Shown here: one piece after another, positions 4,624 to 43,894 of the stretch
Numbering within the stretch: position 1 is the first letter of the stretch
Layout of the letters: the number at the start of each line of letters is the position of its first letter
Assembly: GCA_018969615.1 (NCBI GenBank)
Contig: JAGWYA010000002.1
Coordinates: 3,070-67,069 of the forward strand
DNA from: Patescibacteria group bacterium
GTDB lineage: Bacteria; Patescibacteriota; Minisyncoccia; UBA6257; 02-FULL-45-10c
DNA: 64,000 nt
Reading direction: 5' to 3'
Made by a program: the position numbers and the translations under genes
Notes under the pieces: generated by a model
Databases searched by the model: none
What the model was told of the DNA's origin: nothing
Seen by the model: the letters and a program-made list of their open reading frames with translations, nothing else

Positions 4624-4965
4624 CTATTTTTTCTGCTTGCAGGCTTTGCAAAGCCGGGATTCGGGATCGATCTTCAAAACCTCAAGCGGGATCGCTTTGC
4701 CGCACTGCTCGCATTTCCCGTACTCTTTGCTGTCGATCTTGCCCAGAGCGTGTTCGATCTCGGCCAAGCGCTCCTTCAATGCGGTCGTGATACCAAGCTC
4801 GTTGCCGGTCTCTTCCGCTTCGTCGGCCTCTTCCGACATATCCTCGCCTTCGACGTCATCGCCGAAATCAGGCGTCTTTGAATGCCGCGCAACTTCCGCG
4901 TCTAATTCTCCCGCTTCTTTTTCCAGCTGCTCTTTCAGAGCTTGCATTTCTTTTTCAGTAAGCAT
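4624..4965 (-). CDS. DksA/TraR family C4-type zinc-finger protein
   Basis: 113 aa; acidic coiled-coil N-terminus then CEQCGKAIPLEVLKIDPESRLCKAC (CxxC-N17-CxxC), typical of DksA/TraR. Confidence 0.7.
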   Translation of the reverse strand: MLTEKEMQALKEQLEKEAGELDAEVARHSKTPDFGDDVEGEDMSEEADEAEETGNELGITTALKERLAEIEHALGKIDSKEYGKCEQCGKAIPLEVLKIDPESRLCKACKQKK

Positions 4966-5035
4966 GCCCTTATTCTAGTACAGCCGGCGGTTTTGTAAAG
5001 CGCCTTCCGGTACGAAAAACGCTATTTGACAGTGC

Positions 5036-5064
5036 AATTTTTTTATGGTACTCTATAAAACAAG
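5036..5064 (+). promoter_or_regulatory. Sigma-70-like promoter: TTGACA (5036-5041), 17-nt spacer, TGgTACTCT extended -10 (5056-5064)
   Basis: Consensus -35 hexamer and TG-extended -10 read from the sequence, about 75 nt upstream of the 5140 ATG. Architecture resembles the promoters at 43332 and 41563. Confidence 0.5.
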
Positions 5065-5139
5065 TTAGCCAGTACCTTGTACAACAGCAGAAGTGTCGTT
5101 AAATCAACCCCCAATACGGGGCAGGAGAGGTGTACGACC

Positions 5140-5907
5140 ATGAAGAACGAGTCGAGAGCGCAGGAGCTGGAAAAGAAGTACGGCCTCGTCTACAAGCTCG
5201 CCTCGAACGTCTCGACGACCGTCGGGACGCTGGAGAACCTGAAGCACAACGGGCAGGCACCGACGTCCGAGCAGGTTTCGGCGAGCGTCGAGGCGAAGAT
5301 GAAACTCCAGAGGGCCGCGATCGAGCTTTCCCCGAGGAAAGTCTCGGAGGTGGCGGAGTACGTCGAGCGGATGGCCTTCGCGTCGGCGATGGTTCCCGAG
5401 GGGAACAGACTCGTCTGGAAGCCCGAAGTGAGCTCGAGCATCGCGAACCGGCTCGTCTCGCTCCGGGAGGCGTTCGTCCTGAAGACGGAGGCTGAGGCGA
5501 AGCAGGACAGCCGCTGGAAGATCTGCTCGTCGCGGATCCTCTTCGTGCGGTCCTTCATCAACCTGGCCAAGGTGACGGGCTACGAGCCGCGCCACGGCAT
5601 GAACCCGCGCGCGGTGCGCGAGGTCCTGGAGATGGCGGACAAGCAGCTGAAGCATCTCGAGACGACGACGCTCGGAGACGCGGACAAGCGGATGAAGATG
5701 TGGGAGTCCGCGAAGCGCCTGCGGAGCGTCGCGCCGAAGCACTGGCTCGTCGAGAAGAAGCCGGAGCCCAAGCAGTACCAGGGCGAGTCCGGGTCGTTCA
5801 AGCTCGGCGCCGCGTGCGGCGTCGAGTCCGACACGACGGCCAATCCGTCCCCGAAGAAGGCGAAGAAGCGCCCGAAGTTCACCTCGGGCGGGGAGCAGAA
5901 GGCGTAA
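5140..5907 (+). CDS. Hypothetical lysine-rich protein (255 aa) with extreme GC-ending codon usage and a KKAKKRPKF C-terminal basic patch
   Basis: ATG 5140 preceded by SD aggagagg; ORF track 5077..5907. In a 37-codon stretch near the 5' end, 35 codons end in G/C. The long antisense ORF 5104..5997 is the usual artefact of GC3-rich coding DNA. A strong terminator lies at 5921-5957. Confidence 0.55.
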   Translation: MKNESRAQELEKKYGLVYKLASNVSTTVGTLENLKHNGQAPTSEQVSASVEAKMKLQRAAIELSPRKVSEVAEYVERMAFASAMVPEGNRLVWKPEVSSSIANRLVSLREAFVLKTEAEAKQDSRWKICSSRILFVRSFINLAKVTGYEPRHGMNPRAVREVLEMADKQLKHLETTTLGDADKRMKMWESAKRLRSVAPKHWLVEKKPEPKQYQGESGSFKLGAACGVESDTTANPSPKKAKKRPKFTSGGEQKA

Positions 5908-5920
5908 GCCGGCGACACAC

Positions 5921-5965
5921 GCCCCACCGATACCGATCAACTCGGTATCGGTGGGGCACCAATTT
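5921..5965 (+). terminator. Rho-independent terminator (16-bp perfect stem gccccaccgataccga / tcggtatcggtggggc)
   Basis: Perfect inverted repeat 14 nt after the stop codon at 5905-5907. Confidence 0.65.
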
Positions 5966-6095
5966 CTTACTGAGTGCACATCTGATGATCGAACCAAAGT
6001 TGGATCATGAAATGTGTTCTTTGACAGCTGGAAAATAGCACAGAGTCAAAACTGACCTGATTTGTTGACGCATACACCGTACCGAAGGAGGTCGT

Positions 6096-7535
6096 ATGAA
6101 CAAAAATGAGACCGGCGGAGCGTACTTCATCGCTCTCGGCGGCGGCAGCAACATCGGCGCAAAGATGCTCGTCCTGGTCTTTCCGCGGGAAAAGATGATC
6201 TTCATCTTCGACTGCGGCATCGGGATGTTGCCGAAGAACGGCAACGCGGATAACATCTACCTTTCAGATCTCGCGAAGTTCGCTGAGCTGATGGCGATGC
6301 ATCCCGGATTCCGGGTCGTGCTCATGCTCACGCATGCGCATATGGATCACATCGGCGGAGTTCCGCTTCTGAAGAAGCTCTACCCGCAGATCGAGATCCG
6401 CAGCACCGAGCCGACGGCCGGGGTCATGGAAGTGATGTGCCGGGATTCGATCAAGATCCGCAAAGGATCCGATCTGCCCGAACACTACACCGAAGATGAC
6501 CTCGTCAGATGTATAGAGTCCATTCATATCGTCCGGTCGGCTGACTGGATCGATCTGAAGCACAGCGGTTTCATGGTTCGGTTCGAACCCGCAGGTCATA
6601 TCTGCGGAGCCTCGACCGTCCTCGTGAAAACCCCGTACGGGATCTTCGCGGATTCCGGGGACATCAGCTTCTACGACACCACGACGGTTCGGGGTGCCTC
6701 CAAGAAGCTCTTCGACCAAGTTCGGTGGCTGTCGATCGAATCCACGAACGGAGATGTTTCGATCGAGGATCCGGAGACTGTCATGAGCGAGCTGGTGAAG
6801 GCGACTCTCGACATCAAGCGCAATAAAGGGAATAGCCTCATACCCGGATTCGCAAATGGCCGCGGACCGGATGTCGCGATCCGCCTCGGGAGAGAACTGC
6901 AGAAATACGGAATCAATGTGTGGTCAGGCGGGCTTCTCCGTCAAGTTACGGAGAGTCAAAGCAAGGCTCATTGGGGTTCCGATCGCCGCTTCCGGTATTC
7001 TTACCATCGGGGAAAGATGGGGAAACCGGTATTCAACCTGGAGCCTGAGAACGTTCGCTGGGTTCACGGATACAACTTCGGCGATATCGTTGATTCCTCG
7101 GGGAACGTCGTCGTCATTCCGAACGGGATGGTCGAGGCGGGGTACGCTCAGGACTTCCTTTCGGAATGGGCCGGGGACAGACGAAACGGCATCTTCATCG
7201 TCGGCTACCAAGCCGAAGGAACGAAAGGAAGGGAGCTTCTCGGCCTCAAGCCGGGCGGGAAGATCACCCTGACAAGTCCCATCAACGGGCACAGCGAGGA
7301 GATCACAGTGAACGCGACCGTGCGGCAGTTCCGTTTCTCAGGACACGCGGACGGCGACCAGCTCGCCGACTGGGTGCACCGGATGAACACGCACGACGGT
7401 CGTTCGCTCGACAAGATGATCCTGGTGCACGGAAATCCGAACGGACAGGAGGGTTTGCGTCAGAAAGCTCTGGCGCTGCCCAACAGTCCGAAAGAGATCC
7501 TCATCGGGAAAAACTGCGAGATCATCAAGCTGTAA
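6096..7535 (+). CDS. Metallo-beta-lactamase fold hydrolase, beta-CASP (RNase J / CPSF-like) family, divergent
   Basis: 479 aa. HxHxDH motif LTHAHMDHIGG; beta-CASP-type motif VGYQAEGTKGRELLG; C-terminal His (VHGNPNG). SD gaaggagg upstream of the ATG at 6096. Confidence 0.65.
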   Translation: MNKNETGGAYFIALGGGSNIGAKMLVLVFPREKMIFIFDCGIGMLPKNGNADNIYLSDLAKFAELMAMHPGFRVVLMLTHAHMDHIGGVPLLKKLYPQIEIRSTEPTAGVMEVMCRDSIKIRKGSDLPEHYTEDDLVRCIESIHIVRSADWIDLKHSGFMVRFEPAGHICGASTVLVKTPYGIFADSGDISFYDTTTVRGASKKLFDQVRWLSIESTNGDVSIEDPETVMSELVKATLDIKRNKGNSLIPGFANGRGPDVAIRLGRELQKYGINVWSGGLLRQVTESQSKAHWGSDRRFRYSYHRGKMGKPVFNLEPENVRWVHGYNFGDIVDSSGNVVVIPNGMVEAGYAQDFLSEWAGDRRNGIFIVGYQAEGTKGRELLGLKPGGKITLTSPINGHSEEITVNATVRQFRFSGHADGDQLADWVHRMNTHDGRSLDKMILVHGNPNGQEGLRQKALALPNSPKEILIGKNCEIIKL

Positions 7536-34820: not shown

Positions 34821-34832
34821 CTTTAAAATAAA

Positions 34833-34995
34833 AATAGAAGGCTTTGTTCTGTGGGCAAATATCCCGTCAGGGAAAAAGTGGAACTTTCCTAAAATAAATT
34901 TTAGAAAAGGTTAGAATTATTCTGAGGAGTGGCCTCGCCTGAGCCAAGCCATCCGTCTAGAAGTAATTCCCGCCCACAGAACAAAACCTTCTATT
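34833..34995. repeat. About 163-nt non-coding element bounded by a 24-bp inverted repeat (1 mismatch): aatagaaggctttgttctgtgggc ... gcccacagaacaaaaccttctatt
   Basis: Inverted repeat read directly from the sequence. The interior contains the palindrome ctaaaataaattttag; the element sits between pilB and ruvB. Confidence 0.5.
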
Positions 34996-35062
34996 TATCG
35001 GAGAACACCTGCATTGGATTGATAATAATATAGCATAAATAAATACTATTGTCAATACCCTT

Positions 35063-43331: not shown

Positions 43332-43359
43332 TTGACAAAAGGCAATTTTATGCTATACT
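43332..43359 (+). promoter_or_regulatory. Consensus sigma-70 promoter TTGACA (43332-43337), 16-nt spacer, TATACT (43354-43359)
   Basis: Hexamers read directly; the surrounding sequence (tatttgaca ... gcaatttt ... atg.tact.tat) resembles the promoter at 5036. Confidence 0.55.
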
Positions 43360-43394: not shown

Positions 43395-43739
43395 ATGGCC
43401 AAACACCAGAAGGGCGAGAAGAAGAGCAAGAAGCAGCTCAAGGAAGAGAAGAAGGCGCAGCAGGAGGCCGCCAAGTCGCACCGCAAGGCCTTCGTGGGTC
43501 TGCCGGCGCGCGAGCGGCATCCGGCGCAGGTGTTGTGCCGCATCCTCCAGTCGAGCGGCCTGAAGGCGATGGGCGAGTACTCGCAGAAGCACGGCCTGCA
43601 GAGGGTCATCGAGTCCCCGCAGGTCATCGCGGCGGTCGCCCGCTACGAGAAGCGCAAGGAAGACCGGCGCGTCGGCCGCCAGAAGAAGGAGGAGGCCGCG
43701 AAGACCGACGAGTCGGTCGCGCAGCAGACGGAGGCCTGA
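43395..43739 (+). CDS. Hypothetical small basic Lys/Glu-rich protein (114 aa) with extreme GC-ending codon usage
   Basis: SD agggaggg then ATG 43395. 109 of 114 codons end in G/C and AAG is used for 18 of 19 Lys codons, unlike the neighbouring rpsT. A terminator hairpin follows at 43745-43782. Confidence 0.55.
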   Translation: MAKHQKGEKKSKKQLKEEKKAQQEAAKSHRKAFVGLPARERHPAQVLCRILQSSGLKAMGEYSQKHGLQRVIESPQVIAAVARYEKRKEDRRVGRQKKEEAAKTDESVAQQTEA

Positions 43740-43744
43740 CACAA

Positions 43745-43782
43745 GCCCCGTTCCATCGAAAGATGGAGCGGGGCTCTTTTTT
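43745..43782 (+). terminator. Rho-independent terminator (gccccgttccatc gaaa gatggagcggggc + TTTTTT)
   Basis: 13-bp stem (one G-U) followed by a T-run, directly after the stop at 43737-43739. Confidence 0.7.
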
Positions 43783-43894
43783 ATTGTTTGTCCAAATTAA
43801 ATTCTGACTGATAGGTCGGAGTTTAATTTGGGTATAAACAATAAACCCCGCCAAAGGCGGGGTAATATCGAGAGGCGATCCTGATCTTGCTTAC

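Follow-up and report, generated by a model that had tools for sequence, protein, structure and literature searches.

The stretch of DNA examined here (the window) comprises 64,000 nucleotides of contig JAGWYA010000002.1 from a Patescibacteria group bacterium (assembly GCA_018969615.1), and the present work concerns one of its genes, referred to below as gene 1, whose codons end almost exclusively in G or C. Gene 1 is an open reading frame (ORF) at positions 5140-5907 of the forward strand, which codes for a basic protein of 255 amino acids (aa) with an isoelectric point (pI) of 9.8 and a net charge of +16. A sequence-only reading of the window had drawn attention to it as a compositional outlier with its own promoter and terminator, and had suggested that this gene and a second one at 43395-43739 (gene 2) were either of foreign origin or members of a lineage-specific family of secreted or effector-like proteins.

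The GC content of gene 1 at the first, second and third codon positions (GC1, GC2 and GC3) is 0.57, 0.43 and 0.94, respectively, and its third bases consist of 147 G, 94 C, 9 A and 6 T. The extreme usage of G/C-ending codons that had been described for this gene is borne out, its GC3 of 0.945 being atypical for the resident genome in comparison with a mean of 0.667 (standard deviation 0.090, maximum 0.80) for the 41 other genes that were confidently identified in the window (z = 3.1). Gene 2 carries the same codon signature, as had also been claimed, with a GC3 of 0.956 (z = 3.2), and the binomial probabilities calculated against the other gene with the highest GC3 are 8e-11 for gene 1 and 2e-6 for gene 2. 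When the window was scanned with a sliding frame of 40 codons, long stretches with a GC content of at least 0.9 at one codon phase were observed only in genes 1 and 2, where they extended over the full length. The edges of the GC3 shift coincide with the ATG and the stop codon of gene 1, the leader preceding it is AT-rich (about 42-48% GC), and its GC1 and GC2 are those of the neighbouring genes in the window. The bias also exceeds that of the ribosomal protein gene rpsT in the window (GC3 0.66; 11 AAG and 10 AAA codons), and the earlier argument that ordinary high expression, as in ribosomal protein genes, is insufficient to account for it holds, since both rpsT and rpsO are at or near the background.

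Upstream of gene 1, and on the same strand, a strong sigma-70-type promoter is predicted at 5026-5054, consisting of a -35 element TTGACA (5026-5031), a 17-nt spacer with a T7 tract, a TG dinucleotide (5046-5047) and a -10 element TACTCT (5049-5054). Judged from the position of the -10 element, transcription would begin at about 5062 and give rise to a 5' leader of about 80 nt (5062-5139), which contains a 17-mer CAGTACCTTGTACAACA (5070-5086) that includes the 8-bp palindrome TTGTACAA, a small CCCCC/GGGG hairpin (5108-5121) and a Shine-Dalgarno (SD) sequence AGGAGAGG (5123-5130). Starting 13 nt past the stop codon, there is a 16-bp perfect hairpin (5921-5957, forward strand), the stems of which, GCCCCACCGATACCGA (5921-5936) and TCGGTATCGGTGGGGC (5942-5957), enclose the loop TCAAC. 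The promoter, the SD and this hairpin are all located where the sequence-only reading had placed them. Its view of the hairpin as a terminator needs correction, in that the U-tract ACCAAUUUCUUAC is poor and the hairpin was not called in a scan for consensus terminators; it is a predicted transcript 3' end or stabiliser with a weak U-tract. A second hairpin, CACATCTGATGATCG...GGATCATGAAATGTG, follows at 5977-6016 of the forward strand and, together with its TTCTTTG tail, extends to 6023; it may act as a tandem terminator, or it may be the leader of the gene that follows.

The gene family and its third codon positions

About 14 relatives of the 255-aa protein are known, all of which are from Patescibacteria metagenome-assembled genomes or metagenome contigs, and a homologue search covering 1.84 billion representatives and 5.8 billion clusters produced matches only from the Candidate Phyla Radiation (CPR). 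The members of this family, which vary in length from 234 to 298 aa, are only 22-34% identical between groups. No relatives of the gene 1 protein were detected in the IMG/VR, INPHARED phage or PLSDB plasmid collections, and a viral, phage or plasmid origin was rejected on this basis. Using a subset (A5) of the family alignment, as the alignment itself (A4) was too divergent for locus finding, 15 loci (designated by L numbers) were collected from NCBI, ENA, JGI and Logan assemblies of separate samples. Because the same locus has been assembled independently from different samples, a chimeric assembly as the source of gene 1 is excluded. ComM and a DksA/TraR-type zinc-finger gene, the latter transcribed divergently, always precede gene 1; on its other side come either a gene for a beta-CASP metallo-beta-lactamase or another small one, and then genes for a LysM/M23 peptidase, UvrD and KsgA. 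In the window, L001, L015, L140, L141, L143 and L144, a family member is flanked by the DksA-like gene on one side and by the beta-CASP or LysM/M23 genes on the other, the extended order S15-NYN-PNPase...ComM-DksA-gene...LysM/M23-UvrD is common to the window, L001, L140 and L143, and the syntenic position is identical in at least eight genomes. No integrase or transposase gene is present next to gene 1 in the window. Gene 1 is hence a native, vertically inherited and CPR-specific gene, belonging to a family of a Parcubacteria subclade, and of the two proposals made earlier that of a lineage-specific family is the one which agrees with its distribution.

The strength of the codon bias relative to the resident genome was expressed as a logit shift, S, i.e., logit (target GC3) minus logit (neighbour GC3), for the 11 loci with neighbouring genes. 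At every one of these loci the GC3 of the target gene (0.75-0.96) was higher than that of its neighbours, which provide backgrounds ranging from 0.19 to 0.71. The values for the target and its neighbours are, respectively, 0.94 and 0.71 in the window, 0.96 and 0.71 in L001, 0.88 and 0.68 in L007, 0.87 and 0.47 in L015, 0.84 and 0.49 in L061, 0.75 and 0.44 in L136, 0.78 and 0.42 in L137, 0.75 and 0.51 in L142, 0.94 and 0.52 in L143, and 0.95 and 0.64 in L145; the extreme case is L140, from a 35% GC genome, where a target GC3 of 0.78 is observed on a background of 0.19. The shift in the gene 1 family varies from 1.05 to 2.66, and the bias persists across genomes with GC contents from 35% to 55%. 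In view of the low identity of the proteins between groups, the silent sites must have turned over repeatedly without loss of the bias. Within the G/C-ending class the codon preferences are those of the resident genome, from which the A/T-ending codons have been removed. For lysine, most members use AAG in 77-96% of cases, also where its share in the neighbouring genes is 14-32%; L142 is an exception (10 AAG to 8 AAA). Synonymous first positions have likewise moved to G/C, with CTN used over TTR for leucine and, in AT-rich genomes, CGN over AGR for arginine; in L140 the ratios are 15/4 for Leu CTN and 14/4 for Arg CGN, compared to backgrounds of 34% and 32%. GC1 and GC2 are mildly above those of the neighbours in AT-rich genomes (0.56/0.37 versus 0.46/0.34 in L140), and in L143 they are 0.68/0.43 versus 0.53/0.37.

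These results show that each lineage actively keeps up the G/C-ending codon usage of gene 1, however different the mutational backgrounds, and the persistence of this usage indicates selection on silent sites that is specific to the gene and unusually strong. The phenomenon is a form of selected codon bias that is unusual in its size, direction and persistence across genomes; a literature search for a described GC3 phenomenon of this kind in the CPR found nothing specific. An Akashi-type test for translational accuracy gave a GC3 of 0.87 at conserved and 0.85 at variable residues (odds ratio 1.23, p = 0.23), and no enrichment of SD-like motifs was found inside the coding sequences (CDS; z from -2.4 to +0.4).

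The expression signals of gene 1 are also retained in the family. The exact TTGACA and a TATG-N-TA extended -10 are kept at all family loci, each of which also has a strong SD, and the spacer GGGTCTTTTTTTATG is common to L007, L015, L061 and L137. The leader, which is about 80-130 nt long across the loci, is better conserved than the CDS or the protein. Its 17-mer is identical in the window, L001, L015 and L061, shows one change in L007, and is represented by the variants GCAGTACATTCACA in L136-138 and GTAGCACCTTGTGAAG in L140. As L007 breaks the GTAC/GTAC pairing, this element is probably not a hairpin but a predicted recognition site for a protein or an RNA. A scan of metagenomes with the 17-mer gave 120 matches, essentially all due to chance, L061 being the sole genuine one. 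The CCCC/GGGG hairpin abuts the SD, and its pairing is kept with two compensatory pairs. At the position of the 16-bp hairpin, a perfect stem of 16-20 bp is present in every family locus, its sequence differing in each lineage (full covariation). The second hairpin is nearly invariant in the window, L001 and L007, and other lineages possess a different second hairpin, which ends in the same AAGTTCTTT or in TGTTCTTTG; overall, a second hairpin was noted in the window, L001, L007, L015, L136, L139, L140 and L142, with the conserved end (A)AGTTCTTT or TGTTCTTTG. In Rfam searches, the region 4900-6150, which includes the leader and the 3' region, had no match below E = 0.6, and for the whole window no family reached the gathering score except one tRNA; the only tRNA gene in the window is Arg-CCG.

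The pattern of divergence within the family was examined for the window gene (5140-5907) and its counterpart in L001 (9516-10286), which differ by p-distances of 0.19, 0.15 and 0.18 at codon positions 1, 2 and 3. The apparent dN/dS ratio (nonsynonymous to synonymous substitution rate) is 0.9 for this pair and 0.7-0.9 when L007 (1024-1728) is included, and the dS of gene 1 is 0.21, compared to 0.81 and 1.93 for the adjacent ComM and DksA genes. A near-neutral reading of the ratio of 0.9 was dropped because the silent sites are themselves constrained, their differences amounting to 39% of the saturation level expected from the gene's own codon usage, as against 67-78% in the adjacent genes. We take this pattern to reflect constraint on the silent sites together with rapid evolution of the protein. 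Near-equal distances at the three positions are unusual for conserved coding genes and are only partly explained by constrained silent sites; the distances for gene 2 are similar (0.22, 0.18 and 0.22). Since divergence is heterogeneous across these genomes (dS of 0.31 for uvrB and 0.16 for ruvA), the gene 1 locus may be of more recent common ancestry.

The protein product, gene 2 and neighbouring genes

The 255-aa protein matched no Pfam family, in agreement with the earlier statement that it has no recognisable domain, and across the family only scattered weak hits of single members were seen. A profile search against the PDB gave nothing below E = 0.017. An AlphaFold2 model, based upon an input alignment of three sequences (predicted TM-score, pTM, 0.63), consists of an all-helical body (residues 1-203; per-residue confidence, pLDDT, mostly 75-90) and a disordered tail (residues 206-255). 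All 14 members of the family are basic (pI 9.1-9.9) and helical, with a disordered tail that closes with a short K/R cluster, which a linker rich in Pro, Ala and Gly precedes. The sequence KKAKKRPKF, which had been taken for the end of the protein, is indeed near its C-terminus, but it is not terminal, as the protein ends in ...KKAKKRPKFTSGGEQKA. Its interpretation as resembling a nuclear localization signal (NLS) is not supported, since the basic tail is a compositional feature of the whole family of generally basic proteins, and this is more typical of tails that bind nucleic acids. Similarly, the suggestion of secreted or effector-like proteins finds no support, as the N-terminus of the gene 1 protein is hydrophilic and, as read from the sequences, the proteins of both genes lack a hydrophobic signal-like segment at this end. 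The protein resembles the lysine-rich histone-H1-like and other nucleoid proteins (e.g., Chlamydia Hc1 and those with HupB-type or AlgP-type basic tails) in being small, very basic and presumably abundant, and in having a disordered tail in which K, R and P are frequent. It differs from them in that its tail is short and strongly basic only in the last ~10 residues, its binding is putative, and no match by sequence or profile and no shared fold was detected with the known nucleoid-associated or histone-like families (HU, H-NS, Lsr2, Hc1 and others). A (L)KESVA(Q/S)-like motif occurs in the tails of the gene 1 family (LKESVAS in L015, LKESVAQ in L140 and MKESISG in L001), and a similar motif, DESVAQQ, is found in the tail of the gene 2 protein (window 43700-43730; tail ...KTDESVAQQTEA); the resemblance may reflect a short linear motif common to both, or chance.

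Gene 2 (forward strand) codes for a protein of 114 aa with a pI of 10.1, which has a conserved 4-helix core (residues ~37-90) flanked by K/E-rich helical segments. Its predicted promoter (43332-43359) fits the same pattern as that of gene 1, and is made up of TTGACA (43332-43337), a 16-nt spacer and a TG-extended -10 element TATACT (43354-43359); the gene is followed by a putative intrinsic terminator (43744-43783, forward strand) with the stem GCCCCGTTCCATC / GATGGAGCGGGGC and then a T-run. The position of gene 2 is kept in the order rpsT-gene-uvrB-ruvA, and its logit shift is 1.7-2.2. A kinship between the two genes was considered and rejected (hhalign probability 0.1%), and gene 2 appears to be under the same regime as gene 1. 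The pattern TTGACA-N9-15-TTTATGSTA is present three times in the window, where zero occurrences are expected, viz. before each of the two genes and once ahead of a candidate small RNA. The third site (35031-35055, reverse strand; TTGACA...TTTATGCTA), which is of the same type as the promoters of genes 1 and 2, precedes an ORF-free region of about 165 nt (34832-34996, reverse strand) between a pilB-like gene and ruvB. This region can be folded into a structure with a closing stem of at least 24 bp, three inner hairpins and a U-tract, with a minimum free energy (MFE) of -83.1 kcal/mol (z = -9.8 versus shuffled sequences); it matched no Rfam family, and we regard it as a candidate for a novel abundant small RNA.

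Among the neighbours of gene 1, the beta-CASP/RMMBL gene (window 6096-7535; L001 10479-11954) shows only 26% identity between the window and L001, compared to 88-90% for the flanking ComM and DksA genes, which indicates a non-orthologous replacement or a recombination breakpoint beside gene 1. In some lineages the beta-CASP gene is replaced downstream by a different, likewise small and conserved gene with the motif FE.QR.NIG.AY...EASKDG (partner B; L140 8945-9706, L137 1959-2489, L139 1310-2044 and L142 1080-1775), which, judged by hidden Markov model, is not a member of the gene 1 family. The GC3 of partner B is raised in L140 (0.61 versus a background of 0.19) and not raised in L137 and L142 (0.47). 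The DksA/TraR-type gene upstream (L001 9000-9341 and L004 257-598, orthologues of window 4624-4965 on the reverse strand) has a GC3 of 0.49, which is below the background of ~0.71 and thus deviates in the direction opposite to that of gene 1.

Interpretation of the silent-site bias

On a slight balance of probability, we favour the view that gene 1 is a native stand-alone cassette for the maximal output of an abundant, putative nucleic-acid-binding protein, the silent sites of which are under persistent selection. In such a cassette, a promoter close to the consensus and with an extended -10 would be followed by a long and conserved leader with a strong SD and, at the 3' end, by one or two hairpins of very high stability. 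A roughly constant pressure from A/T to G/C (a logit shift of ~1-2.7) would act on its silent sites atop each genome's own mutational background. The pressure would come from selection for an output of this protein that is both very high and lasting, by way of efficiently decoded G/C-ending codons, of a long-lived mRNA that is GC-rich and resistant to RNase, or of both. In groundwater Patescibacteria, 75-93% of the expression is derived from genes without a functional category (PMC9938205), which makes an abundant uncharacterised protein plausible while saying nothing specific about gene 1.

A number of observations weigh against this view, the main tensions being the unshifted ribosomal protein genes and the fast evolution of the protein. 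Among the few reference genes available, no ribosomal protein gene shows a comparable shift: besides the window rpsT, the GC3 is 0.65 for rpsT in L009 and 0.70 for rpsO in L001 (the background being ~0.71 for the window rpsT and the L001 rpsO), and 0.29 for rpsO in L140 versus a background of 0.19. If classical translational selection were at work, gene 1 would therefore have to be its only target, and the CPR, with their slow growth and few rRNA operons, are expected to have weak translational selection. The dN of gene 1 is 0.19, or about three times that of ComM and DksA (0.065), and proteins made in very large amounts do not typically evolve this fast. In several family members, Arg AGR codons show no sign of avoidance. 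Folding relative to synonymous shuffles is not specific, as the z values of the targets (-1.1 to -6.5) overlap with those of neighbouring control genes (-0.1 to -4.5). The strength of the promoter, SD and terminator is predicted from their consensus-like sequences, and the nucleic-acid binding of the product is predicted from its charge alone.

Of the other explanations, a recent horizontal acquisition from a high-GC donor, be it a host, virus or plasmid, would fit the atypical composition, the self-contained cassette and the confinement of homologues to a narrow group, and alien genes and genomic islets also show a sharp compositional break at one gene with its own promoter and terminator. 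We consider it very improbable and reject it, and the foreign origin proposed in the sequence-only reading is contradicted. Syntenic orthologues with the same bias are found across the lineage, which is what that reading had itself said would tell against its proposal, and the bias has been kept across proteins of 22-34% identity without amelioration on any of the backgrounds. In addition, viral, phage and plasmid homologues and flanking mobility genes were not detected, GC1 and GC2 are unlike those of a high-GC donor, and the choice among G/C-ending codons is that of the resident genome. Still less credible is dual coding, in which G/C third positions would serve to keep a long antisense or alternative-frame ORF open. 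An antisense ORF of 297 aa (5104-5997, reverse strand), longer than the sense ORF, is indeed present and is also open in L001, L007 and L015. However, it is open only where GC3 is highest, and the in-register frame is broken by TCA or CTA in four of eight members (L061, L136, L137 and L138), no other frame is open throughout the members, and it is the sense strand that carries the promoter, SD and terminator. This explanation was rejected on account of the broken frame; the antisense ORF is a by-product of the G/C third positions rather than a gene, as sense NNS codons cannot yield in-register antisense stops. GC-biased gene conversion, by which frequent recombination and biased repair at a hotspot would drive changes from A/T to G/C, also seems improbable to us. 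The fast-evolving protein, the divergent beta-CASP gene with its implied recombination breakpoint nearby, the slightly raised GC1 and GC2 in AT-rich genomes, and the often mildly raised GC3 of downstream genes (0.84 in L001, 0.67 in L143, 0.71 in L145 and 0.61 for the partner gene in L140) are all consistent with it. Nevertheless, the shift is limited to the CDS and is sharp at its start and stop, the leader and intergenic DNA are AT-rich, the upstream divergent DksA-like gene of L001 is below the background, and the protein stays rich in Lys (AAG) without a drift to Gly, Ala, Arg or Pro. The GC3 shifts of 0.25-0.6 are also far above the few-percent effects reported for this process in bacteria, and the hotspot would have to persist at one gene across deep CPR divergence.

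The remaining alternatives are closer to the favoured view. Classical translational selection only, with G/C-ending codons being best decoded and gene 1 simply the most highly expressed gene, is unlikely as a full account. In its favour, NNC codons are the Watson-Crick matches to GNN anticodons, all amino acids are biased, the predicted cassette has the features of a very strongly expressed gene, and an S of ~2 reportedly lies within the range of the top genes of fast-growing bacteria. Gene 1 thereby resembles the top-expressed codon-biased genes (tuf, ribosomal protein, HU, Lpp and cold-shock genes), which exhibit gene-specific silent-site shifts of similar size (~1-2.7), a near-consensus promoter, a strong SD, a long leader and a stable 3' hairpin, and the size of its shift varies with the background in the manner of a mutation-selection balance. 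It is unlike them in that the ribosomal protein genes of its own genomes lack the shift, its hosts are CPR bacteria, its protein is fast-evolving, and its shift runs uniformly towards G/C (AAG, GAG, CAG and the Leu/Arg first positions), a 35% GC genome included; AAG, GAG and CAG remain the preferred codons in genomes where their share is 15-25%, and no accuracy signature is seen at conserved residues. A doubtful, although more serious, possibility is that the GC content and structure of the transcript are themselves selected, whether for a stable message (e.g., in dormant or starved cells), for a structured-RNA role, or for escape from an AT/AU-preferring product of its own. The MFE density of the family transcripts is notably uniform, at -0.415 to -0.473 kcal/mol per nt across GC3 values of 0.76-0.96, compared to -0.23 to -0.41 for most neighbours, and all eight members examined fold better than their synonymous shuffles, most strongly in L136-138 (z from -4.9 to -6.5). 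The mildly raised GC1 and GC2 in L140 and L143, the movement of synonymous first positions to G/C, the very long 3' hairpins typical of stabilised mRNAs, and the presence of the trait in genes for two unrelated basic proteins point in the same direction. Stabilised messages such as E. coli ompA and cspA resemble gene 1 in being monocistronic units of high output, with a long conserved 5' untranslated region and a 3' hairpin of great stability; in gene 1, unlike these, the coding region itself is compositionally remodelled, and its leader has no homology to theirs (no Rfam match). Against selection on the RNA are the negative z values of control genes (to -4.5), the AT-rich leader and the tolerated AGR codons, and, as it overlaps the mRNA-stability arm of the favoured view, it is a sharper version of the latter more than a true alternative. 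A related and equally tentative idea, to which we attach a low but slightly greater probability, is that of a 'GC-armoured mRNA' in the CPR, where nucleotide-level selection would keep the CDS of a few abundant basic-protein genes GC-rich and structured, whatever the composition of the genome. The message would then be long-lived, or would escape AT/AU-directed binding or degradation, possibly by its own product, and the leader 17-mer and tandem 3' hairpins could be part of the same device.

Implications for Patescibacteria

Single-gene GC3 outliers are routinely read as evidence of horizontal transfer. In the present case, the same outlier is found at the same syntenic site on backgrounds from 0.19 to 0.71, and hence it represents a selected trait. 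Gene 1 also provides an unusually clean natural experiment on silent-site selection, in which one family can be followed on many mutational backgrounds in hosts thought to have little codon selection. These results single out an uncharacterised, probably very abundant basic protein of Patescibacteria, together with a second, unrelated one that has the same promoter type, and the combination of the promoter pattern with the GC3 shift provides a simple means of screening genomes for further genes of this presumed high-output class. If the 'GC-armoured mRNA' idea is true, the bias would represent a new class of silent-site constraint and would serve as a marker for the dominant unknown proteins of Patescibacteria.

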